From: an uncultured Campylobacterales bacterium
GTDB taxonomy: Bacteria > Campylobacterota > Campylobacteria > Campylobacterales > Sulfurimonadaceae
Direction: 5' to 3'
Assembly (NCBI GenBank): GCA_964650175.1
Contig: CAZYTC010000007.1
Coordinates: forward strand, 484 to 64,483
DNA: 64,000 nt
Part shown: positions 1,364 to 62,810 of the stretch, piece after piece
Layout of the letters: the number at the start of each line of letters is the position of its first letter
Position numbering within the stretch: the first letter of the stretch is position 1
Translations under genes and position numbers: made by a program
Notes under the pieces: model-generated
What the model saw: the letters and a program-made list of their open reading frames with translations, nothing else
Database searches by the model: none
Told to the model about the DNA's origin: nothing

Positions 1364-2821
1364 CTACGCCTCCACTTTACTCCACTCAATCTCTAGTGCT
1401 TTTACGACACCTTTTCCGTACTCAATATCTGCTTTTGCACAGTTTCGGATATGGCGGATTTGAATATTTTCTGGTACACCAGACATATTTCTAGCGGTAT
1501 TGTCAAAAAGTATCTGTTTTTGCTCACTACTCATCACATCAAAAAGCATCTTAGTTTGCGTGTAGTAGTCGCTGTCATCCTCATGGAAATTCCAGTGATC
1601 AGCGAGGCTACCAATTTCTAGTGCTGGATCTCTGTAGTCTGATTGCTCTTGCCATTTGCCAAAGCTATTTGGCTCATAACCGATAGTTGAGCCGAAATTA
1701 TTGTTCACTCTCATCTGACCATCTCTGTGGTAGCTGTTTGTTTCACATTTTGGGGCATTCACAGGGATTTGATGGTGATTTACTCCCAGTCTATATCGCT
1801 GTGCATCGCCGTATGAAAATAGTCTACCTTGCAGCATCTTATCTGGTGAAAAGCTAATCCCAGGGACAACTGCCGCAGGATTAAACGCTGATTGCTCCAC
1901 ATCTAGGAAATAGTTTTCAGGGTTGCGGTTAAGCTCAAAGTATCCCACTTCGATTAGTGGAGCATCTTTTTTTAGCCACACTTTAGTTAAATCAAATGGA
2001 TTATATGGCAGATTTTTTGCCTGCTCTTCGCTCATCACTTGGATAAACATTGTCCATTTTGGATAATCACCTCGTTCGATGCTCTCATATAAATCTCTCT
2101 GGTGAGATTCGCGATCTTTGGCGATAATCGCCTCTGCTTCGGCGTCGCTTAGATTTTTAATCCCTTGTTGCGTGTGGAAATGAAATTTGACCCAAACTCT
2201 CTCATTTTTGGCATTAATCATAGAAAAAGTGTGGCTTCCAAATCCGTGCATATGTCTATATGAGTATGGGATACCACGATCACTCATCACAACTGTTACC
2301 TGATGGAGTGCTTCAGGCAAAAGCGACCAAAAATCCCAGTTTGTCTTGGCACAACGCATATTCGTTCTAGGGTCTCGTTTGACTGCATGGTTTAAATCAG
2401 GAAATTTAAGCGGGTCTCGCAGAAAAAATACAGGTGTGTTGTTACCTGCTAAATCCCAGTTGCCCTCTTCTGTATAAAACTTCATAGCAAATCCACGGAT
2501 ATCTCTCTCAGCATCTGCCGCACCTCTCTCACCTGCTACGGTGGAAAATCTCACAAACATATCTGTCTTTTTGCCGATTTCGCTAAACATTTTCGCTTTT
2601 GTATATTTGGTGATATCGTGAGTTACGGTAAATGTACCAAATGCACCAGAGCCTTTGGCGTGCATTCTTCGCTCTGGTATCACCTCTCTATCAAAGTGTG
2701 CAAGTTTTTCTAAAAACCAGACATCTTGAAGCAGCATAGGACCTCTCGCACCAGCTGTCATTACATTTTGGTTATCTACTACAGGTGCTCCTGCAACCGT
2801 TGTAAGTTTGTGATCACTCAT
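1364..2821 (-). CDS. katA: Catalase (monofunctional, haem b)
   Basis: 485 aa. Carries [20 protein letters not shown] (distal His region) and [15 protein letters not shown] (proximal Tyr region). Confidence 0.97.
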
Positions 2822-5195: not shown

Positions 5196-5767
5196 ATGCA
5201 AAATTTATCAAATCTAGTAGTTTACAGTGATGGTGAACTGGAGTTAAAAGTTTCAGTAGATAGCGAAACCGTTTGGCTGACACAAAAGCAGATTGCAGAG
5301 CTTTTCAATGTAACTGTTCCAAATATAAATATGCATATAAAAGCTATCTATAAAGATGAAGAGCTTATTAAAAATCGAACTATTCAATATTTCTTAATAG
5401 TTCAAAAAGAGGGAAATAGAGAAGTTGAGCGAAATATTGAACACTATAATTTTGATATGATTATATCTATTGGATACAGGGTAAACTCTGTAAAAGCCAC
5501 AAAATTCCGTCAATGGGCAACAACTATTTTAAAAAGCTATATACAAAATGGCTATGTGATAAATACTCATAAGATAACAGAGCAAAGATTGCTATCTTTG
5601 GAAAATGATATGCAATTTATAAAATCTAAAATAAAAGACAATAGCTTAGAATTGAAAGAGAATATCTTTTATGATGGGCAAGTTTGAAAGATTTGGGCAA
5701 AAAATGGTTCGCGTTTTCTAAAATGAATCTAGATATTGATGAGATTTTAAATAAACTAAAGGTGTAG
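5196..5767 (+). pseudogene. RhuM-family gene with an out-of-frame internal deletion
   Basis: The N-terminal 163 aa (…ISIGYRVNSVKATKFRQWAT…) stop at 5687. In another frame the last ~27 codons (LKDLGKKWFAFSKMNLDIDEILNKLKV*) match the C-terminus of the copy at 32994-33867. The central ~120 codons are missing. Confidence 0.8.
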
Positions 5768-47578: not shown

Positions 47579-49012
47579 TTACTCCTTGTTTGATATGTCT
47601 GAATATGTGATTATTGTTGCACTCTCTAGTGCTCTGCTGATTATATATCCTATATCAGAATCCTCTGCTTTTGCGATATAAAAGACATGTGGAGCGTGCA
47701 CGCCGTGAGTATTTTCCAGATTTGTTAAAAATATATTTGAAAAATCGTGATATTGCAAACTAAAGCTATCATTGGTTATCTGAGATTTGATGCCAAAATA
47801 CTCATCGAGTGCGTTTTTACACATATTTAGCGTATCTTGATCTTTGCAAATTATCATCGAGCGTTTTTTATCATCGAAAAATTTAGAGTGTATTTTAGTT
47901 AGCAGCATAGGCAGTAGCGTTTCACTATCTGTTTTTAGATGCTCTGTATCGATTTTATCGCAGTAGTTATTTGTAAGCTCAATCACCTTCTTATCTATCA
48001 GACTATCAGAGGTCTTTCGCACTAAAACTAGAGATTGTTTAGCTGGTTTAGAGAGTCGCAATAGATCTAAAATCGACTCATCATAGAGGTGTGAATCATC
48101 ACAATAGATGGTGTCGAGCTCTAGATGTTTTTTGCTATTTATAAACTCATTTAGCTCATCTGATGGGATAAATTGAATATTTTTTAGATTGATATTTATA
48201 GCCGCACAGGTGAGGATATTTACTAGCTCTTTTCGCAGTAAATCAGCCGCTAGCACTGTTTTTGTGGTAATGAGTATCTGTTTTTGTCTATCTTGTAGTA
48301 GCTCTAGAAGTGCTCTAGAGATTATGGCGGTACTCTTTCCGCTATTGTGTTTGCCATATAGAGTGATGACTTCAGAGCCTAAATCACTATTTATAAAATT
48401 TATCTGCTCTTTATCTAATAATCTAGCCTCTGATTGCTGTTTTGATGGCAATATGAGATGTGATTGTAGTGCGATAGAGATTGTTTTAGTAGGCAGTGTG
48501 TTTTTATTATACTCTAGTAGCGATTTTAGTTTTTGCAGTATTGCATCAGGTGGTGTATCTGAAAATATAATCTTCTCTATAGGCAGTAGCTCTTTAAATG
48601 AGTCATCTAGATTATCATACTCACTCTCTAAAAGCTCTGACATATAGATAAAACGGCTATACTCTATCTCGTTAAAAGATAAAATATCATCTAGTTTTTG
48701 TCTAATCATACTCTCGCTATCTTCAAAGTTTGTGGTAGATTGTTTGGTATTGCTAGCTTTTGAGATGGTTGAGTTTTTTAAATCATCAAATGTATAATCT
48801 ATCTGATTTGCTATATAGATTCCATGGTGTGGTAGATAAAATAGATATTGGATTTTGCGATATTTATCTATATAGTAGAGATTAAAATCATAAAAAAATA
48901 GTCCATCTGTGCCATTTGCTAGATGGTTTAAATGTTTAATGAGCTCATTATCGGCACTTTTTTCTACTATTTCTATATTTGGTTTGAAGAATTTTGATAC
49001 AAATGTAAACAC
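47579..49012 (-). CDS. P-loop NTPase with degenerate NERD-like N-terminal domain (SF1-helicase-like)
   Basis: 477 aa. Walker A is [11 protein letters not shown] and a Walker-B-like [10 protein letters not shown] follows. The N-terminal ~80 aa have a NERD-like layout, but IANQ occupies the expected E-x-K position. A 2-nt gap separates it from msrB. Confidence 0.5.
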
Positions 49013-49122: not shown

Positions 49123-49407
49123 CTATTTAGCAGCCTCTACGCTATCTTTTAAACCTTTACCTGGTTTAAATTTCGGAACCATTTTGTCCGCAGTAGTATA
49201 AGTTTTATCAGTTCCTGGAACTTTACCACTTTTACCTTTTTGTAGTGCAGTAACAAAGCTACCAAAACCAACTAGAGATACTTCCTCTTTTTTCGATAGT
49301 GCTTCTGTTACAGCAACTGTAAATGCTTTGATAGCTGTTTCAGCTTCAACTTTAGTTTTGTAACCACCACTTTTTTGAACTAGTTCAACGAATTCTGCTT
49401 TATTCAT
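49123..49407 (-). CDS. hup: Histone-like DNA-binding protein HU
   Basis: MNKAEFVELVQK...SLVGFGSF...GKVPGT...PKFKPGK. An internal Met of the track ORF is taken as the start. Confidence 0.92.
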   Translation of the reverse strand: MNKAEFVELVQKSGGYKTKVEAETAIKAFTVAVTEALSKKEEVSLVGFGSFVTALQKGKSGKVPGTDKTYTTADKMVPKFKPGKGLKDSVEAAK

Positions 49408-49512
49408 CCATGTCACCTTTTTTGTGAGAGTACGCATATATTTTATCCACACGAAATGGTTAAAATATTTTCGCTATGAGTACTTTAATATCTATTAGCT
49501 TAAAGTTTTCTT

Positions 49513-49740
49513 CTATTTGTGGTAAAATCTAATAGTTTTGGTGCTTTCGGGTTGATTTAGGACTTTTTTAAGCCATCCTTTAGGTTTTGTGGTGAAATTA
49601 GAGATTATGCTTGGTCTTTTATTAGCATATTTTTTATAGTTACTAAAGAGATTTAATCTGCCAAATCTACCCCTGCGAGGTGAAATGCATAAAAAAACCT
49701 CCTCTAGTGCTAATCTCTCTTTTTCACTCAAAACATCCAT
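49513..49740 (-). CDS. Small basic hypothetical protein
   Basis: 75-aa ORF. It starts 1 nt after the stop of the XRE regulator gene. No recognised motif. Confidence 0.45.
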   Translation of the reverse strand: MDVLSEKERLALEEVFLCISPRRGRFGRLNLFSNYKKYANKRPSIISNFTTKPKGWLKKVLNQPESTKTIRFYHK

Positions 49741-49741
49741 T

Positions 49742-49981
49742 TTAACTTCCCAATCTATTTATTTTTCTAACTACTCTGATTATCTCATCATCTTCTAACA
49801 TTCCTAGCATATCCATCACCGCTTTTGCTGCTTGAGGTTTGGCGTTGCCCAGCCTCCAATCTTGGTATGTACGCATGGAGATACCTAGTTGTGTAGCCAT
49901 CTCTTTTTGAGAGATCTTTTTACCATTATGCTGTGCCTCTACCGCATTGTGCAGGAGATTAAAAAGATCACTCATTTCCAT
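49742..49981 (-). CDS. XRE-family helix-turn-helix transcriptional regulator
   Basis: 79 aa. ISQKEMATQLGISMRTYQDWRLG is a classic HTH_3 core. Confidence 0.75.
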   Translation of the reverse strand: MEMSDLFNLLHNAVEAQHNGKKISQKEMATQLGISMRTYQDWRLGNAKPQAAKAVMDMLGMLEDDEIIRVVRKINRLGS

Positions 49982-50137
49982 TGCCTCATTTTAGTAGCTT
50001 TTCCTTTAATTAGACATTAAACCGTATGTAAAAACTGTTAAATTGTATTTGATATCTATTTTTAATACTATTTTAAACATATATCAGAATAAAGCATAAA
50101 CTATTCCATATTATAAATTAGTTATTATTCATATTAT

Positions 50138-50153
50138 ATACGGAATACCGTAT
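50138..50153. promoter_or_regulatory. Palindromic operator candidate in the XRE / csgG-like divergent intergenic region
   Basis: ATACGG-AATA-CCGTAT has perfect 6-bp arms. An extra ACCGTAT half-site lies at 50021-50027, near the XRE start. Confidence 0.35.
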
Positions 50154-50224
50154 TAATATAATTAATGTTATAAAATGTATGATTTCATTTAAAGGATATT
50201 TTTATAAAATTACTTGTACTATAT

Positions 50225-50923
50225 ATGTATAAAACAAAAAAAGGATTCACGATGAGATTGGTTGGGATATCTATTATGGTACTAGCCATTGCGATATTGT
50301 ATGGCGGTTGTGCAAAAGAGAGTTCAAGAGCACTAGAAGTTCCTAGGACTCATGCATCAAATAATGTTTATAAAGGCGAGAGAGCGTCACTATCTATTGG
50401 AGCATTTGATAATCGCTCTAGCTATATGAGAGGAATATTTTCTGATGGCGTTGATAAATTAGGCTCTCAGGCAAAAACAATATTGATATCACACCTGCAA
50501 CAAACAAATAGGTTTGTTATATTAGATAGAGATAATCTATCTCAGCTAAAACAAGAAGCAGGCTTTGCGGGAAAAACAAACTCTATTATGGGTGCAAAAT
50601 ATGTAATCACTGGCGATGTGTCAGAGTTTGGACGCAAAGAGGTTGGAGATCATCAGTTATTTGGAATACTTGGCAAGGGTAAATCTCAAATCGCATATGC
50701 AAAAGTGATTTTAAATGTGGTAGATGTAGAGAGCTCAGCAGTAGTGCATACATCACAAGGAAGCGGAGAGTATGAGCTATCAAATAGAGAGGTGATAGGA
50801 TTTGGTGGTACATCTAGTTATGATTCTACTTTAAATGGTAAGGTATTAGATTTAGCAATCAGAGAGGCTGTTGATTCATTGGTAAGTGCTATATCAGATG
50901 GTTCGTGGAACCCACACAGATAG
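50225..50923 (+). CDS. CsgG/HfaB-family outer-membrane lipoprotein (secretion channel-like)
   Basis: 232 aa. Lipobox LYGGC. SLSIGAFDNRS...LGSQAKTILISHLQQTNRFVILDRDNLSQLKQE...GAKYVITGDVSEF follows the CsgG family pattern. Confidence 0.82.
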   Translation: MYKTKKGFTMRLVGISIMVLAIAILYGGCAKESSRALEVPRTHASNNVYKGERASLSIGAFDNRSSYMRGIFSDGVDKLGSQAKTILISHLQQTNRFVILDRDNLSQLKQEAGFAGKTNSIMGAKYVITGDVSEFGRKEVGDHQLFGILGKGKSQIAYAKVILNVVDVESSAVVHTSQGSGEYELSNREVIGFGGTSSYDSTLNGKVLDLAIREAVDSLVSAISDGSWNPHR

Positions 50924-50930
50924 GGTATTT

Positions 50931-51284
50931 ATGAGATTAAGAGTACTATTGTTAGCTACATTGGTAGCATTTGTGTTGACAGGATGCGGTAGTTCATATA
51001 AGCCATTATATTATTGGGGCGACTATCAGCCTCAGATATATGCACACCTAAAAAATTCTCATAGCTCATCAGCAGAGCAGCTAGGAGCTATGGATGAAAC
51101 TTTACAGAAAGCTAGATCTAATGATTTACCTATGGGTCCAGGTTTTTATGCACATGTAGCACTATTGCATCTAGAAGATGGCAATTTCGATGAGTTTAAA
51201 AAACATATGGAGCTAGAAAAAGAGCTTTTTCCAGAATCTAGCCATTATGTAGATTTTATATTAAAAAATTTGATAAAAAAGTAG
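50931..51284 (+). CDS. DUF4810-family lipoprotein
   Basis: 117 aa. Lipobox LTGC. YYWGDYQPQIY..., PMGPGFYAHVALLHL...EKELFPES are typical of DUF4810. Confidence 0.7.
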   Translation: MRLRVLLLATLVAFVLTGCGSSYKPLYYWGDYQPQIYAHLKNSHSSSAEQLGAMDETLQKARSNDLPMGPGFYAHVALLHLEDGNFDEFKKHMELEKELFPESSHYVDFILKNLIKK

Positions 51285-51288
51285 TGAT

Positions 51289-51951
51289 ATGAGAGTATAT
51301 ATAATAGCATTTATTGCCATAGTGTCTGCTATGGTGTTTGGCGGATGTGCTAAGTCAGTAGAGCCATATGATTATAGTGCCTTTAGAGAGCATCATCCTA
51401 AATCTATTTTGGTATTGCCCCCGATAAATAACTCAAATGATATAGTAGCGACTCCAGCTGTTTTTGCTCAGGTAGTTATGCCACTAGCTGAATCTGGTTA
51501 TTATGTTTTTTCTCCATCATTGGTATCAGAGACATTTAAAAACAATGGCTTAACAGTACCAAACGAGATACACGCCGTGTCGCTACATAAATTAGATGAG
51601 GTTTTTGGTGCAGATGCGGTGCTTTATATAGAGATCAAAGAGTATGGCTCTTCGTATAAGATTTTAAGTAGTGATATAACTGTATCACTAAATGCAAAGC
51701 TAGTTGATATAAAAACAGGCAAGCTGCTATGGAAGGGCACCGCTAGAGCATCTAGTGCAGAGGGGAAATCTAATAATGGAAATATTATAGGTATGCTAAT
51801 TGGTGCACTAATCGATCAGATAGCCAATACTGTGTCGGATAATAGCTATAAATATGCAGGTATTGCCGATAATAGGCTGCTTTTTGCAGGTAGAAATGGT
51901 GCACTATTATATGGACATAGATCGGATAAGTATGCAAAAGAAGAGTATTAA
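51289..51951 (+). CDS. DUF799-family lipoprotein (GNA1162-like)
   Basis: 220 aa. Lipobox FGGC. SILVLPPINNS..., PLAESGYYVFSP..., FGADAVLYIEIKEY..., LVDIKTGKLLWKG. Confidence 0.75.
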   Translation: MRVYIIAFIAIVSAMVFGGCAKSVEPYDYSAFREHHPKSILVLPPINNSNDIVATPAVFAQVVMPLAESGYYVFSPSLVSETFKNNGLTVPNEIHAVSLHKLDEVFGADAVLYIEIKEYGSSYKILSSDITVSLNAKLVDIKTGKLLWKGTARASSAEGKSNNGNIIGMLIGALIDQIANTVSDNSYKYAGIADNRLLFAGRNGALLYGHRSDKYAKEEY

Positions 51952-51975
51952 AGAGTTTTAAGAAGCTACATCTAT

Positions 51976-51993
51976 TGCTCTCATTTGAGAGCA
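51976..51993 (+). terminator. Hairpin after the lipoprotein trio
   Basis: TGCTCTCA-TT-TGAGAGCA followed by TTGTTG, 25 nt after the stop codon. Confidence 0.45.
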
Positions 51994-52041
51994 TTGTTGA
52001 TAACATCTCTCTTAAAATACGAGAAAAATCAAACGCCTAGG

Positions 52042-52095
52042 ATTAATTCTCATAAAGCCACAAAATTCCGTCAATGGGCTACAATTATCAGTTAT
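52042..52095 (+). pseudogene. Short RhuM-family gene fragment
   Basis: AAAGCCACAAAATTCCGTCAATGGGC is identical to the KATKFRQWA-coding stretch of rhuM copy 1 (about 5503-5528). Only about 17 codons remain (..HKATKFRQWATIISY*). Confidence 0.65.
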
Positions 52096-52251
52096 TAGAT
52101 AGAGGTATTAAATATAGATTATTGCTCTCTGCTCACAGTGACTGCTCTTTGTTTTGATGGTAAGAGTTAAAAATTTATCTTTTCTCGTTTTTTATGCAGT
52201 GAAACTATTTTTAGATTGTGTGTGTTATAATAGTGCACTATAGGGGTTTTT

Positions 52252-53868
52252 ATGGGTAGCAAGAGGTATTGTATACTAGCATTTATTTTTTGGGGTTTAG
52301 TGGTGCTGGGTTCATATATGTGGAACTTGCACCTACTGGGTGAGAAACTATATAATCAATCAGTAGATCGTGCACAATTTGTTTTTAAGATGATAGAATC
52401 CACTAGGCTATGGAATGCAAGACACGGTGGAGTTTATGTAAAAATCAGTGATGAGACGCAACCAAACAAATATTTAAAAATCGAAAATAGAGATATAAAT
52501 AGCGTCGATGGAATGCATTTGACGATGATAAACCCCGCTTATATGACTAGACAGCTTATAGATGTAGTTACAGAGCCGAGCGATTTAAAACTACATATCA
52601 CTAGCGATAAGCTGATGAATCCGATTAATAAAGCAGATGAGTGGGAGAGTAAACAGCTAGAGAAGTTTAAAAATGGTGTTAGCTCATTTGCAGAGTTTAT
52701 AGATGATGGCGATAGTAAGATTTTTCGCTATATGCAACCGCTAAAGGTCGATAGTAGCTGTCTTAGATGCCACTCTCATCAAGGCTATAGTGTAGGGGAT
52801 GTGCGAGGTGGCGTAAGTGTCACTTTTAGCGTAGAGCCACTGCTAGAGCTAGAGTCGGCTCAGAGTCGAAATATAGCTATTAGTCATCTGATTGCGTGGC
52901 TATTACTGGGTGTTTTATCGACGCTTTTTATCTATAGATTTAGAAAAAATATCGTCAATCTAGAGCTTGAGAAGATACGCATCGAGGAGCTGGTATCAAT
53001 TAGAACAAAAGAGCTACAAAAATTTTCACACGCGATACACTATAGCCCCGTAACTATTGTTATTACCGATAAAAATGGTGCGATAGAGTATGTAAATCCA
53101 AAATTTTCTGAAACAACAGGCTATAGCTATGATGAGGCGATAGGGCAAAATCCTCGGATACTCCAATCAGGAAAGCTTAAAGATGGTATCTATAGAGAGC
53201 TTTGGGAGACAATTTTAGATAAGCAAGAGTGGCGTGGAGAGCTGTTAAATAGAACAAAAGATGGCACAGAGTATTGGGAGGATGCGAGAATTTCGCCGAT
53301 ATTAGATAGTGATGGCGAGGTTACCCATTTTGTGGCGATAAAAGAGGATGTTACGCTCAAAAAACTATCTCAAGAGAAGATTTTATATCAAGCACGCCAC
53401 GATGCATTGACAGGACTTGTAAACCGTAAATATTTTCATGAGCTACTATCTGAGGCTATGAAAAAACCTCTGGTACTACTCTATCTAGATTTAGATGGAT
53501 TTAAGATGGTAAATGACACCCTAGGGCATGATGCGGGGGATTTGCTATTATTAGAGGTGGCCAAAAGGCTTTCAAATCTAGTTCGCTCTAGCGATGTGGT
53601 AGCTAGGCTCGGTGGCGATGAGTTTGTTATTATGATGAGAAGCGGTGCGAGCATTGATGGTGCAAAAGAGTTGGCTGAGAAAGTTCTAGCATCTATTTCG
53701 ACACCGTTTGATATAAAAGATAATATGATAAAAATCTCTACATCTATCGGGATATCTATATCTAAGATGGATAAGAGTGAGCATGAGCTATTAAAAGAGG
53801 CAGATATTGCGATGTATGATGTAAAAGAGTCAGGTCGAAATAACTATAAAATCTATGGAAAAAATTAA
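52252..53868 (+). CDS. Diguanylate cyclase with DUF3365 (haem-c) sensor, TM, PAS and GGDEF domains
   Basis: 538 aa. ARHGGVYV..., INPAYMTRQL and CLRCH (CXXCH) fit DUF3365. PAS follows (ITDKNGAIEYVNPKF). GGDEF domain with RLGGDEFVIM. Confidence 0.88.
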   Translation: MGSKRYCILAFIFWGLVVLGSYMWNLHLLGEKLYNQSVDRAQFVFKMIESTRLWNARHGGVYVKISDETQPNKYLKIENRDINSVDGMHLTMINPAYMTRQLIDVVTEPSDLKLHITSDKLMNPINKADEWESKQLEKFKNGVSSFAEFIDDGDSKIFRYMQPLKVDSSCLRCHSHQGYSVGDVRGGVSVTFSVEPLLELESAQSRNIAISHLIAWLLLGVLSTLFIYRFRKNIVNLELEKIRIEELVSIRTKELQKFSHAIHYSPVTIVITDKNGAIEYVNPKFSETTGYSYDEAIGQNPRILQSGKLKDGIYRELWETILDKQEWRGELLNRTKDGTEYWEDARISPILDSDGEVTHFVAIKEDVTLKKLSQEKILYQARHDALTGLVNRKYFHELLSEAMKKPLVLLYLDLDGFKMVNDTLGHDAGDLLLLEVAKRLSNLVRSSDVVARLGGDEFVIMMRSGASIDGAKELAEKVLASISTPFDIKDNMIKISTSIGISISKMDKSEHELLKEADIAMYDVKESGRNNYKIYGKN

Positions 53869-53878
53869 AAGGAGTAGT

Positions 53879-54487
53879 ATGAATTATCCAGCGTTTTTTG
53901 ATAATGTGGAGAAAGTCTATATGATTGACCCACTATCTGCAGTTTTAGGGACATTTAGTGGTGGTGAGGTAGAGTTTAGCTATCTAGATGTGGTAAAAGC
54001 AGCAGGGCATAGTTGCCCTACAGTAGGTGGTGCATATTTGATGAGTTTGCGAGCATTAGAGGCACTCTATCCTAATGAAAAACCTCTGCGTGGAGGTATT
54101 AGAGTCGAGTTTAAAGAGCCTATGACAGAGGGCGTAGCAGGTGTAATTGCAAATGTAATCACGCATATCACAGGTGCTACAGAGAGCAGTGGATTTAAGG
54201 GATTAAATGGCAAATTTGCCAGACACTCGCTGATGAGTTTTGAGAGTGATATAGCATCATCAGCTAGATTTAGCAGGGTTGATAATGGTGAGAGTGTGGA
54301 TGTTTTTTATAATCCGAGCATCGTGGCACCAAGCCCACAGATGCAACCACTAATGCAAAAAATTATGGGTGGCGTAGCTAGTGATGATGAAAAAAGAGAG
54401 TTTGGCAAACTGTGGCAAGAGCGAGTAAAAATGATAGTTGTAGATAATGCTAAAAATAGTGATGTGATTAGGGTGGTTAAATTATAG
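53879..54487 (+). CDS. FmdE-like domain protein (tentative)
   Basis: About 202 aa. AAGHSCPTVGGAYL resembles the GHxCPG motif of FmdE/FwdE-family domains. A strong AAGGAG RBS lies 7 nt before the ATG at 53879. Confidence 0.45.
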   Translation: MNYPAFFDNVEKVYMIDPLSAVLGTFSGGEVEFSYLDVVKAAGHSCPTVGGAYLMSLRALEALYPNEKPLRGGIRVEFKEPMTEGVAGVIANVITHITGATESSGFKGLNGKFARHSLMSFESDIASSARFSRVDNGESVDVFYNPSIVAPSPQMQPLMQKIMGGVASDDEKREFGKLWQERVKMIVVDNAKNSDVIRVVKL

Positions 54488-58845: not shown

Positions 58846-58949
58846 ATATTAAGCCATTTCTTATGCAATAAATATTTAATTGCCATTTTTTGTGATACAA
58901 TTAAAAAAAGTATTTAAAAGTGAATTATACTATAAATCAGGAGGTGCTT

Positions 58950-60896
58950 GTGAGTTTATTTGGTTTTGTAGGGGGATTATTTGGCGATAATAGAGATAAT
59001 TCTACTAATATAGATGGCAAGCAACCAGATGATAATATTTTATACAAGGTTTTAGATACCAACTCTAATCCAATACTACTTTATACTAGAAAAATGGGTT
59101 GGTTTTGGGCAAATAGAGCATTTTTTGCACTCTCTGGGTATAAAGATATTGAGCAATTTAAGAGCGAAAAAGAGAGTCTAAGAGATATTTTTGCATATGA
59201 GAGCGAAGATATTTTTACTGAATCTGATAAGACTTGGCTAGATTATCTAAGATCTGAGGGCATAAAAGATTATAGCGTCGGAATGGTAGATGGTGAGTCG
59301 AAGATGAATACGCTAGTAGCTAGAGTGAGTGTTATTAGAGACTCTGGCGAAGATTTATATATATTGCGACTAGATAATATTACAAATGTGATAAAACTGC
59401 GTGAGGATATGTCAAAAGTAGAGGAGTTGCAGGGTAAATTTCTCTCAAACATCTCACACGAATTTCGTACACCTATGAATGGTATTTTAGGCTTTATAGA
59501 TTTAATCGGTGGCACAAACTTAACAGAACTGCAACAAGAGTATATAACCTCTGCACAAAGCTCTGCTAGAAATCTGATGAATAATATAGAAAATCTGCTA
59601 GATTTAGCACAGATGCAAAGTGGAAAACTCACAGTAAGCAATAGCGATTTTAGTATCGTCCATGAGCTAGAGGATTTAGCTAGAGGGATTGTTCCAGCGG
59701 CTGAAGATAGAGATATTAGTGCACTATTTTTTATAGATCCAAAGCTACCAACAACGCTTACAGGCGATATTAGAAAGATAAAACAGGTAATATTAAATCT
59801 ATATCAAAATGCTCTAAAATTTACACCACCAAAAGGCAGAGTAACGATAGAGGCAAAACTGCTAAAGCGAAATACATCTGGTAGTTGTAATATAGGATTT
59901 AGTGTCAAAGATACAGGCAAGGGCATAAACAAAGATGAGTTAGCTCAAATAATCAGACCGTTTGTCTCGGGTGATCAAGCAGATAATAGACTAGGCGTAG
60001 GGCTTAGCCTATCTCATGGGCTAGTCAAATTGATGGGAAGCGAGTTAAAAATCGTAAGCGAAGAGGGCAGGGGCTCATCATTTAGTTTTGCACTCACGCT
60101 AGAGGGCTCTGTGGGTCATACGATGCAGATGATAAATAATATCCAAGTAAAAGTACTGCTACTAGATGAGAGTAAAATCGATGATGCAAACCATCTAACA
60201 AACTATCTACGCAGTTTTGGGCTATCTGTTGTAAAATCACAAACAATAGATGAAAACTTATATAAAGATGTAGAGTGCGTATATGTAGTAGCTAGCCAAG
60301 AGAAAATCGATTGGCTCGTGCCATTATCAAAAATCAAGCGAGAAAAGCGAGTTATACTACTGATAGAGTCTGGCGAAAAACTACAAGCTAGAATGCTTCA
60401 TGGTGTGGATGAGCCTCTATCTAAACCGCTACTGCCGTTTATGTTTATGGAGCATTTAACAAAAACATATAATATTCCAAAACCGATGGTCTATCAAACA
60501 CAAACACTTCAGCGAGGAATCCAAGCGTTAGTGGTAGAAGATAACCTTATTAATCAACGATTAATTACCCTATTGTTGCGTGAGTATGGGGTAAAAGTAA
60601 CTGTAGCATCAAATGGTGAAGAGGCTGTTGATGCTTGTAGATTAAACACCTATGATATTGTATTTATGGATATCGATATGCCTGTAAAAGATGGTATAGT
60701 AGCAACCCAAGAGATAAAAGAGGAAAAACGCTACACCAAAGGTGACAAGATGCCTATTATCGCTCTAACAGCACTAGCTATGGAGGGCGATAAAGAGCGT
60801 ATTTTAGCAGAGGGACTAGATGATTATATCTCTAAACCTCTAACTAGAGAAAAACTAGAAGCTGTGCTTCATAAATATTTGGAAGTAACTGTATAG
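58950..60896 (+). CDS. Soluble hybrid sensor histidine kinase/response regulator (paralogue 1)
   Basis: H-box SHEFRTPMNGI, HATPase (GVGLSLSHGLV), a degenerate receiver-like linker, and a C-terminal REC (FMDIDMPVKDG). An AGGAGG RBS lies 5 nt before the GTG at 58950; the track start is 58920. Confidence 0.88.
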   Translation: MSLFGFVGGLFGDNRDNSTNIDGKQPDDNILYKVLDTNSNPILLYTRKMGWFWANRAFFALSGYKDIEQFKSEKESLRDIFAYESEDIFTESDKTWLDYLRSEGIKDYSVGMVDGESKMNTLVARVSVIRDSGEDLYILRLDNITNVIKLREDMSKVEELQGKFLSNISHEFRTPMNGILGFIDLIGGTNLTELQQEYITSAQSSARNLMNNIENLLDLAQMQSGKLTVSNSDFSIVHELEDLARGIVPAAEDRDISALFFIDPKLPTTLTGDIRKIKQVILNLYQNALKFTPPKGRVTIEAKLLKRNTSGSCNIGFSVKDTGKGINKDELAQIIRPFVSGDQADNRLGVGLSLSHGLVKLMGSELKIVSEEGRGSSFSFALTLEGSVGHTMQMINNIQVKVLLLDESKIDDANHLTNYLRSFGLSVVKSQTIDENLYKDVECVYVVASQEKIDWLVPLSKIKREKRVILLIESGEKLQARMLHGVDEPLSKPLLPFMFMEHLTKTYNIPKPMVYQTQTLQRGIQALVVEDNLINQRLITLLLREYGVKVTVASNGEEAVDACRLNTYDIVFMDIDMPVKDGIVATQEIKEEKRYTKGDKMPIIALTALAMEGDKERILAEGLDDYISKPLTREKLEAVLHKYLEVTV

Positions 60897-60905
60897 GAGT
60901 TATAG

Positions 60906-62810
60906 ATGGTATATTTTACACCAGAGTTTAAAGCAGACTACAACTGCGACTGGATAGAGGCGTGTACATCACTACATATCGATCCGCTTTTATATATCGA
61001 CCTCTCTGGTGTAATACTAGGATGTAATGATAGATTATTAGATTTTTTACATTTGAGTGATTTTGATGAGATGAGTGAGCTAGGCGAATGGTTCGTTCCA
61101 CAGGGTCTAGAGATATCATTTATCGTCGCAAATAGTGGAGATTATAGAGGAAAAATCTATCACAACAGCACCTCTTATGATGTGCTTGTAAAATCTGAGC
61201 ATATCGTACTAGGGGATAAACCTATAGTAGGAGTGGTGTTTAAAGATATCTCTATATTAGAAAAAGCTAGAGCGGCAGAGAGATATTTTGAGACACTAAA
61301 AAATCAGTTTTTATCAAACATCTCTCATGAGTTTAGAACTCCTATGAACTCTATTATCGGCTTTACCGATTTGCTCAAAAACTCACCACTTAGCTCATGG
61401 CAATCAGAGTACATCTCTATGATGGGCAAGAGTGCTATGAGTATGATGCGAAATATCGAAAATCTACTTGAGCTGATGCAAGTAGAGAGCGGTGGAGTGC
61501 ATCTAAATCTACAATCTGTCAATCCTATAGAGGTATTTGAGCGATTTTCTATGCTATTTGATGATTTAGCTAGCTCTAAAAAGATAGATTTGCTATTTCT
61601 AATAGATCCAAGGCTTCCAAAAATTATGATAGCTGATGAGGATAAGATTTTAGCTGTTATTAGAAATCTGATTCAAAATAGTATCAAATTTACCAGCGAT
61701 GGCGGAAGTGTTTTTGTAGAGATAACTCTCACAAAAGATGAGCCAGATGCTATAGAGGTAGAGTATAGCGTAAGTGATACAGGCATCGGTATAGAGCCTG
61801 AGAGAGTAAAAATGCTACTTCGTCCATTTGCTTCGGCGTGGGATAATCAACGCCGTGGCAAAGATGGGCTAGGAATCGGGCTTAGTCTGAGCCATAAATA
61901 TATAGATATGATGGGCTCGCATCTAATGTTAGCTTCAGAGGTAGATAGAGGCTCTAGATTCTCATTTAGACTCACACACGAGGTAGAAGAGAGGGCGTCG
62001 TTTGAGGTAAATAGTGATGTGGCAATATCTATATATACACAAAAGAGCACGCTAGGCGTACATGGTGCACTGCTATATAAATATCTAGAGGTGCTAGAGC
62101 TAGAAGCAACCGTTGTAAATGATTTAGTTAGTGATGTAATTAGAGATTCAGATGTGCTATTTTTAGATGCAGAGCATATCTCAAAAACTCAGATAGATGC
62201 ACTAAAAACAGCATATCCAGAGTTAGATATTATACCGATAATCTATAGCAAAGATATACTATTTGCCCAAGAGCTAGAGCGAGATTCTATCTCCTCGCTA
62301 CTATTACCGCTACTGCCGACATCGCTATTAAAAGCACTAAGTGGCTCATGTGAGGCGATTAGCCAAAGTCATATTGTAGAGTCATCAAAATCAAAAGATT
62401 TAGCAGATTTCAAAGATGTAAAAGTGCTAGTGGCAGAGGATAATATAATTAACCTCAGACTACTAGAGACGATACTGCACCAAGAGGGCTTTAAAGTTAC
62501 AGCTGTAGATAATGGTCAAAAAGCAGTCGATGCATATCTAAAAGAGTATTTTAATATCGTACTTATGGATATCGATATGCCTGTGATGGATGGGCTGATG
62601 GCAAATAGGCTTATCAAAGAGATAGACAAACGAGATAATCGTGGTGCAGTGCCTGTTATAGCACTTACAGCCCACGCACTTATTGGAGATAGAGAGCGTA
62701 TCATAGCGGCGGGACTAGATGCTCACCTCGCTAAACCAATAGATAAAAAACTACTACTACAGACGATTAGTAGATTTATGAATAGCAAAGATAAAAATAG
62801 AGCTAAATAG
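60906..62810 (+). CDS. Soluble hybrid sensor histidine kinase/response regulator (paralogue 2)
   Basis: 634 aa. H-box SHEFRTPMNSI, HATPase (GIGLSLSHKYI) and a C-terminal REC (LMDIDMPVMDG). No TM segment. Confidence 0.9.
   Translation: MVYFTPEFKADYNCDWIEACTSLHIDPLLYIDLSGVILGCNDRLLDFLHLSDFDEMSELGEWFVPQGLEISFIVANSGDYRGKIYHNSTSYDVLVKSEHIVLGDKPIVGVVFKDISILEKARAAERYFETLKNQFLSNISHEFRTPMNSIIGFTDLLKNSPLSSWQSEYISMMGKSAMSMMRNIENLLELMQVESGGVHLNLQSVNPIEVFERFSMLFDDLASSKKIDLLFLIDPRLPKIMIADEDKILAVIRNLIQNSIKFTSDGGSVFVEITLTKDEPDAIEVEYSVSDTGIGIEPERVKMLLRPFASAWDNQRRGKDGLGIGLSLSHKYIDMMGSHLMLASEVDRGSRFSFRLTHEVEERASFEVNSDVAISIYTQKSTLGVHGALLYKYLEVLELEATVVNDLVSDVIRDSDVLFLDAEHISKTQIDALKTAYPELDIIPIIYSKDILFAQELERDSISSLLLPLLPTSLLKALSGSCEAISQSHIVESSKSKDLADFKDVKVLVAEDNIINLRLLETILHQEGFKVTAVDNGQKAVDAYLKEYFNIVLMDIDMPVMDGLMANRLIKEIDKRDNRGAVPVIALTAHALIGDRERIIAAGLDAHLAKPIDKKLLLQTISRFMNSKDKNRAK

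Follow-up and report, generated by a model that had tools for sequence, protein, structure and literature searches.

The stretch of DNA analysed here (the window, 64,000 nucleotides (nt) of contig CAZYTC010000007.1 from an uncultured Campylobacterales bacterium) contains a trio of adjacent genes, each of which encodes a predicted lipoprotein: a CsgG/HfaB-family protein (gene 1), a DUF4810 protein (gene 2) and a GNA1162-like protein, a family formerly called DUF799 (gene 3). Their coordinates, and those of the features around them, are collected in Table 1. All three genes lie on the forward strand, separated by spacers of 7 nt (genes 1 and 2) and 4 nt (genes 2 and 3), the same spacing as had been described in an earlier interpretation made from the letters alone, hereafter the sequence-only reading. 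The start of gene 1 is more likely the ATG at 50252 than the one at 50225 given in the list of open reading frames (ORFs), because an AAGGA motif is found 6-7 nt upstream of the former and the resulting product of 223 aa fits the length of the homologues (221-228 aa). The spacer before gene 1 then measures 270 bp, instead of 243 bp when counted from ATG 50225.

Table 1. Features of the trio locus and its surroundings (window positions).
Feature	Position	Strand	Remarks
XRE-type helix-turn-helix (HTH) gene, 79 aa	49742-49981	-	Pfam HTH_3 E 3.8e-4, below cut-off; NCBIfam RstR and NadS weak
Inverted repeat ATACGG-AATA-CCGTAT	50138-50153		6-bp arms, 4-nt spacer; candidate XRE operator
Gene 1, CsgG/HfaB-family lipoprotein	50252-50923	+	223 aa from ATG 50252; 232 aa from in-frame upstream ATG 50225
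Gene 2, DUF4810 lipoprotein	50931-51284	+	117 aa; Pfam DUF4810
Gene 3, GNA1162-like (formerly DUF799) lipoprotein	51289-51951	+	220 aa; Pfam GNA1162-like
Hairpin, weak terminator candidate	51976-51993	+	25 nt after gene 3 stop; 7-bp stem, 4 GC pairs
RhuM-family gene remnant	52054-52088	+	...KATKFRQWAT..., matching Pfam RhuM positions 35-49 (15 residues), E 0.011
Tll0287-like/PAS/GGDEF diguanylate cyclase gene	52252-53868	+	Pfam, NCBIfam; absent from L095
FmdE-like gene	53855-54487	+	overlaps GGDEF gene by 14 nt; Pfam FmdE E 1.5e-4, just below cut-off; absent from L095

The family assignments of the sequence-only reading (CsgG-like, DUF4810-like and DUF799-like) were borne out by Pfam profile searches, all three of which scored above the curated cut-offs. 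Gene 1 matched CsgG (PF03783) over profile positions 9-203 of 210, with E 3.8e-21 and 75.8 bits (cut-off 20.8); gene 2 matched DUF4810 (PF16068) over positions 1-84 of 85, with E 4.8e-25 and 88.3 bits (cut-off 34.7); and gene 3 matched GNA1162-like (PF05643) with E 6.5e-78 and 261 bits (cut-off 25.9). The lipoboxes of genes 2 and 3, LTGC and FGGC, are both within the PROSITE-style pattern. That of gene 1 is YGGC (...AILYGG-C-AKE, Cys29), which the strict PROSITE pattern does not admit because of the Tyr at position -3. For each of the three proteins, all aligned orthologues (35/35) keep the lipobox Cys, and for gene 1 so do the 50 homologues (50/50) of a second alignment. Residue +2 after the Cys is Ala, Gly and Ala in genes 1, 2 and 3 respectively; none of the aligned orthologues of the DUF4810 and GNA1162-like proteins has Asp there.

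The order CsgG-like, DUF4810, GNA1162-like on a single strand was found in 80 of 80 genome loci, drawn from GTDB species representatives, the genes being set apart by short gaps or overlapping at their stop and start codons. The trio thus does recur elsewhere as a conserved module, as had been proposed. Further metagenomic loci (L002-L004 and L167-L171) have the same trio order, and one more (L005) ends within the third gene. Such identical order and tight packing across loci fits co-translated partners. Flanks were surveyed across genera in 82 trio loci, and no fourth gene, no cargo gene and no conserved flanking genes were found. The largest cluster of flanking proteins proved artefactual, its members being grouped through PAS and signalling domains that they have in common.

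From over 8,000 scored homologues of gene 1, the best 120, which are 59-93% identical to it, were examined. The named ones among these 120 come from Serratia, Pseudomonas, Azonexus, Zoogloeaceae, Xylophilus, a Bacteroidota metagenome-assembled genome (MAG) and a Sulfurospirillaceae MAG. Between the window and Pseudomonadota orthologues, mean identity is 64% for the CsgG-like protein (61-66%), 35% for DUF4810 and 48% for the GNA1162-like protein. Evolutionary rates therefore differ strongly between the three proteins, and the putative hairpins and central loop of gene 1 are almost invariant across phyla. An identity of 61-66% across phyla, in a protein that has no cargo gene linked to it, suggests that the partner or ligand of the gene 1 protein is universal. 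DUF4810 forms 1,465 representative clusters at 50% identity (E <= 1e-3), nearly all of them small stand-alone proteins, and is the best marker of the module.

The trio is an accessory module and not a universally conserved core. It occurs patchily, being missing from a syntenic relative of the window (locus L095, described below), and a blastn search with a Klebsiella copy as query did not find it in 5,426 complete E. coli genomes. No true plasmid was seen to carry it: the PLSDB entries matched by tblastn are megaplasmids, chromids and entire chromosomes that were deposited as plasmids.

Clusters of the same composition have been met before. In Acinetobacter baumannii UPAB1, deletion of the CsgG homologue or of the middle gene of a 'csgG cluster' (D1G37_12595-12605) abolishes poly-N-acetylglucosamine (PNAG) and Congo-red binding, and deletion of the CsgG homologue also removes the chaperone-usher pathway (CUP) pili and reduces biofilm (bioRxiv 10.1101/2021.05.19.444899). 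The authors of that study identified the third gene as a GNA1162 homologue, found the cluster to be repressed by a plasmid-borne H-NS, and described it as widespread in Gram-negatives and 'largely uninvestigated' (10.1101/2021.05.19.444899). The UPAB1 cluster and the Neisseria meningitidis genes NMB1164-NMB1162 (GNA1162) share with the window trio the same three families in the same order and the lack of curli genes. They differ from it in that the window host belongs to the Campylobacterota and its operon lies beside a candidate XRE operator; H-NS control is unlikely in this host. Trio homologues are also listed in a biofilm transcript table of Haemophilus parasuis, cited here for their presence in it and not for the sign of the change (PMC4245831), one was raised 4.7-fold in a mutS mutant of Neisseria gonorrhoeae (PMC6955733), and several appear in meningococcal vaccine antigen lists. 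The term DUF4810 was not found in a full-text literature search. The Campylobacter jejuni lipoprotein operon Cj0089-Cj0091 was considered as an instance of the same trio and discarded, since Cj0089, a homologue of HP0018, belongs to the TPR proteins and Cj0091 is of the HP1457/LpoB type. The trio is a further copy of a known, poorly characterised and mechanistically unsolved module, and not a new kind of system. The earlier description of its substrate and function as uncharacterised holds for the mechanism; it overlooked the deletion phenotypes of A. baumannii UPAB1 and the GNA1162 crystal structure, 4HRV.

Pfam annotation of most called ORFs of at least 120 aa between about 42 and 63 kb returned housekeeping and signalling genes, and none of the curlin (CsgA, CsgB), CsgE or CsgF families. 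A phmmer search with E. coli CsgA-G gave no match in the whole 64-kb window either. The trio is thus not a curli system, and the earlier remark that neither curli genes nor an obvious cargo gene lie nearby stands.

The relation of gene 1 to CsgG itself was then assessed at the level of the fold. An AlphaFold2 model of the protein, built from a 50-sequence alignment, had a mean confidence (pLDDT) of 81. Its top 25 Foldseek matches in the PDB were all CsgG chains (E 9e-10 to 1e-6, TM-score 0.47-0.56), the best being 6l7c, 4uv3 and 4uv2 with E about 1e-9, TM-scores of 0.52-0.56 and 15-19% identity. After CsgG came FlgT, then GNA1162 and PelC/PelBC (E 4e-6 to 1e-5 for the latter), a succession which indicates that genes 1 and 3 share a ring-forming lipoprotein fold. 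The relation is distant. In phmmer searches of the PDB neither gene 1 nor gene 2 had any match, so that CsgG was reached by profile and fold search only; the gene 1 profile retrieved CsgG from the PDB at E 0.012, and hhalign aligned gene 1 with E. coli CsgG over 203 columns with a probability of 92% (E 6.5e-7).

These matches bring up the reading in which gene 1 forms a true CsgG-type (type VIII-like) pore, that is a nonameric beta-barrel, with the DUF4810 and GNA1162-like proteins in the roles of CsgE and CsgF and an unlinked protein or amyloid as substrate. Beyond the Pfam CsgG match above cut-off, CsgG in both its pore and pre-pore forms supplies the best fold matches, and the window trio resembles curli CsgG/E/F in having a CsgG-fold lipoprotein with an equivalent of the central loop, a hairpin like the first membrane hairpin (TM1) of CsgG, and two small accessory proteins. 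The TM1-equivalent hairpin is predicted at residues 126-167 (strands 126-144 and 151-167), only 3-4 residues shorter than in CsgG. The equivalent of the constriction loop is 6 residues longer than in CsgG and nearly invariant in the family. In it the aromatic constriction positions appear conserved, hhalign placing CsgG Tyr51 on Tyr67, Asn55 on Ile71 and Phe56 on the invariant Phe72 of gene 1, in a stretch where the alignment is of low confidence. The hairpin equivalent to the second one of CsgG (TM2), however, is about 10 residues shorter, the C-terminal tail or helix of CsgG is absent from gene 1 (hhalign), and the hairpins consist of invariant residues, some of them charged. CsgE and CsgF are soluble proteins, whereas the two accessory proteins of the trio are lipoproteins with no relation to them. 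No curlin, CsgE or CsgF gene was found, near the trio by Pfam or in the 64-kb window by phmmer with the E. coli proteins, and no conserved cargo gene emerged from the 82 loci. What disappears in the Acinetobacter mutant is a polysaccharide and the chaperone-usher pili, and no known amyloid. We therefore consider a CsgG-type pore unlikely. With so distant a CsgG relation, a shortened TM2 hairpin and a missing C-terminal tail, the labels 'nonameric channel' and 'secretion system', which the sequence-only reading had attached to the trio, are an assumption for this CsgG subfamily.

The stretches of the gene 1 model with the lowest confidence (residues 61-80, 141-150 and 181-200) correspond to the CsgG constriction loop and to the TM1 and TM2 hairpins, and conservation within the family is highest there as well. 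In CsgG the constriction loop and the two hairpins adopt their final shape only within the assembled oligomer. The model would fit a similar situation here, with loop and hairpins as surfaces shaped only in the oligomer and in contact with a fixed partner or ligand.

The gene 2 protein was modelled by AlphaFold2 as all-helical, with five helices (pLDDT 75). Its Foldseek matches were TPR arrays only (E 0.2, probability 0.99, TM-score 0.5), and on this model it looks TPR-like. For gene 3 the fold is better anchored, the protein matching the crystal structure of N. meningitidis GNA1162 (PDB 4HRV) over residues 28-184 with a phmmer E of 5.6e-46. This GNA1162 fold is of the alpha/beta lipoprotein class that also includes PelC, LptE and the N-terminal domain of TolB.

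Relatives of that kind open another reading, in which the trio would be a pore-less lipoprotein complex on the periplasmic face, serving envelope homeostasis and contacting, as LpoB, LptE or the N-terminal domain of TolB do, peptidoglycan or a general machine for outer-membrane biogenesis. Many gene 1 homologues carry precomputed Pfam matches to LpoB and TolB_N. Gene 3 has weak matches of its own to LpoB (NCBIfam TIGR02722) and to Pfam LptE; these lie well below the respective cut-offs, at 20.1 bits against 110.55 and 18 bits against 23. The very high conservation across phyla without a cargo, an Acinetobacter phenotype that spans two unrelated export pathways, and hairpins unlike lipid-facing strands would all suit such a complex. 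The fold of gene 1, on the other hand, is nearer to CsgG than to any pore-less relative, and a patchy accessory module, with no copy in the E. coli genomes or in L095, is not what one would expect of a core envelope function. We regard this reading, under which the matrix and pilus defects of Acinetobacter would be indirect, as improbable.

Two other envelope systems offer parallels to the trio. One is the PelBC exporter, in which a dodecameric ring of the lipoprotein PelC is combined with the TPR/porin protein PelB. At the fold level, and as far as the models go, the window trio would likewise bring a ring-type alpha/beta lipoprotein fold and a TPR element to the outer membrane, and the Acinetobacter genetics link the trio to exopolysaccharide. 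It differs from PelBC in that neither a PelB-like 16-strand porin gene nor synthase genes lie nearby, and in that the TPR element is a separate lipoprotein of 117 aa. No Pfam match to a Pel family, no porin gene near the trio and no sequence-level relation to Pel proteins were found. The other parallel is the Caulobacter Hfa holdfast anchor, where HfaB is a CsgG-family lipoprotein that serves polysaccharide anchoring and not curli. Its partners HfaA (curlin-like) and HfaD appear unrelated to DUF4810 and GNA1162-like proteins. HfaA/HfaB/HfaD was cited as a model by the UPAB1 authors (10.1101/2021.05.19.444899).

The reading we favour is that the trio forms an outer-membrane gate or scaffold complex for the export or anchoring of surface polymers, and we put its probability at roughly one half. 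It is suggested by the lack of a linked cargo, together with the unusual conservation of the CsgG-like subunit and the pleiotropic, polymer-related phenotype in Acinetobacter. The three genes would make up one self-contained operon, whose products would assemble into a hetero-oligomeric lipoprotein complex on the inner face of the outer membrane. Gene 1 would supply the ring-forming subunit of CsgG fold, with its central loop, long beta-hairpin and truncated second hairpin as working surfaces. Gene 3, with its GNA1162 fold, would provide a second ring or a plug, and gene 2 would serve as a small TPR-like adaptor between the other two proteins. Such a complex would export or anchor surface polymers (exopolysaccharide, pili) rather than a dedicated protein cargo encoded next to it. 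That the proteins act as one hetero-oligomer is argued for by the tight and universal co-occurrence of three lipoproteins, two of which share a ring-forming fold while one is TPR-like. Outer-membrane location, complex formation and ring assembly are what we infer from these relations, and the polymer-related role would be carried over by analogy from the Acinetobacter genetics.

Several points weigh against this gate or scaffold. The +2 rule for lipoprotein sorting is established for Enterobacteria, not for Campylobacterota. The TPR assignment of DUF4810 comes from a shallow alignment and from Foldseek E-values that are not significant. In the gene 1 model the TM2 equivalent appears as one strand plus a low-confidence loop, and the invariant charged residues of the hairpins (RKEVGDHQ, GKGK) are unusual for lipid-facing strands. 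The Acinetobacter phenotypes, being pleiotropic, could reflect a general envelope defect. Finally, no exopolysaccharide or pilus genes were seen among those ORFs of the window that were annotated.

A bolder reading, to which we give a rather low probability, is that the trio could be a kind of outer-membrane translocon that is widespread yet unrecognised, and that would stand beside the curli type VIII system as a separate sister. A CsgG-fold ring would then have a modified barrel, with one full and one truncated hairpin per subunit. A ring of the GNA1162/PelC-fold lipoprotein would cap the gene 1 ring through the TPR-like lipoprotein, and the whole would handle a universal envelope polymer instead of a protein cargo encoded alongside.

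We now turn to the surroundings of the trio. A scan of metagenomes with MsrB yielded one syntenic relative, L095 (GC 0.35); the other matches came from unrelated taxa, MsrB being highly conserved. On one side, L095 and the window have in common PHO4, peptidyl-prolyl isomerase, MsrB, a 477-aa-like gene, HU, a 75-aa gene and XRE, and on the other side the p191- and p212-like genes. L095 has neither the trio nor the RhuM remnant, the GGDEF gene and the FmdE-like gene, and carries a single 557-aa FapA-like gene in their place (L095 5741-7414; FapA_N domain, Pfam E 5.6e-7). Since L095 keeps both flanks without the trio, GGDEF and FmdE-like genes, window positions 49982-54481 are a variable segment. 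It is larger than the trio, including the GGDEF and FmdE-like genes, the latter of which marks its end. The GGDEF gene might have indicated a link of the trio to cyclic di-GMP; this found no support, GGDEF neighbours occurring in only 5 of 82 trio loci, about chance level.

The 477-aa protein of the shared flank (window 47579-49012, reverse strand) has weak P-loop/helicase-like matches (Pfam AAA_19 E 0.002, PADLOC RecD_like E 1e-4); its position is kept in L095 at only 26% identity, which marks it as fast-evolving. No PADLOC model matched the trio, the XRE protein or the 75-aa protein, which gives them no defence-system association. No Rfam RNA was detected in 49400-52400 and no tRNA gene was found near the trio. 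Further along, at 58920-62810 on the forward strand, two hybrid histidine kinase genes stand in tandem (HisKA, HATPase_c and receiver domains).

Downstream of gene 3, the hairpin and the RhuM fragment that the sequence-only reading had pointed out are both present, in modest form. The hairpin has a minimum free energy of -12.5 kcal/mol, unremarkable against shuffled sequences (z -0.9), and a poor T-tract. The RhuM piece is tiny, about 35 bp, and 94-97% identical to positions 5493-5527, inside a RhuM-family gene located elsewhere in the window (5196-5687, forward strand). That gene is itself truncated (163 aa, Pfam profile positions 2-70 of 252), and it matches the PADLOC candidate defence families PDC-S05 and PDC-S23, with E down to 5.5e-55.

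The location of the trio in a variable segment, beside a RhuM remnant, could be taken to mean that it is the inert and decaying cargo of an old insertion in this genome. This is hardly credible: all three frames are intact and of full length, every family-invariant residue is kept, the base composition has equilibrated with that of the host, and a second strain carries trio copies 93-96% identical to those of the window. The related idea of a horizontally acquired islet can be kept as far as the variable segment goes. A recent transfer is unsupported, since the GC content of the trio (0.35-0.38) equals the window average (0.377) and its proteins are equidistant from all Pseudomonadota.

The ClpB of the window shares 78-82% identity with its counterparts in many genomes and MAGs of Sulfuricurvum, which makes the host a Sulfuricurvum-related member of the Campylobacterota. 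No Sulfuricurvum protein was found among the best 120 gene 1 homologues, though ClpB has dozens of Sulfuricurvum relatives. The nearest named relative of gene 1 belongs to the Sulfurospirillaceae MAG (72-73% identity), where the trio is in a different context, and on another low-GC contig the trio adjoins aroC-rnc-rnhA. As a separate observation, the catalase encoded at 1364-2821 (reverse strand) clusters at 90% identity with a protein of a Sulfuricurvum MAG, against only about 82% for ClpB, and may have been exchanged more recently.

Upstream of the trio, the 243-bp stretch is indeed very AT-rich, with 19% GC; as the spacer of gene 1 it becomes the 270 bp counted from the likelier start. The divergent XRE regulator reported there is present, as a short HTH gene whose HTH_3 match is weak. 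The perfect palindrome noted in the spacer is also there, and the pattern ATACGG-N4-CCGTAT occurs just this once in the window, where 0.02 occurrences would be expected. It has a TATAAT hexamer on either side, at 50133-50138 on the reverse strand and at 50157-50162 on the forward strand, the latter facing the trio 90 nt before ATG 50252. In L095 (7415-7605), which lacks the trio, a near-identical repeat, ATACGG-AAAA-CCGT, with the XRE-side TATAAT again next to it, lies upstream of an XRE orthologue 73% identical to that of the window, with the same 75-aa gene downstream and the same HU gene. Because repeat and XRE gene are kept together there without the trio, they are best read as a resident XRE promoter/operator unit, probably autoregulated, and not as part of the trio. 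The trio may be read from a promoter next to this resident operator and may have come under its control; TATAAT hexamers are common in DNA of 19% GC, which weakens the promoter reading of 50157-50162.

Among orphan outer-membrane lipoprotein systems, the module to which the trio belongs is one of the more widespread. It moves between genomic contexts as an intact three-gene unit, and the window copy shows its patchy occurrence in sulfur-oxidising Campylobacterota. Its gene 1 departs from curli CsgG exactly in the membrane-hairpin region. Knowledge of its architecture and ligand would fill a gap among Gram-negative envelope machines, and solving the module would explain the joint loss of PNAG and chaperone-usher pili in Acinetobacter.

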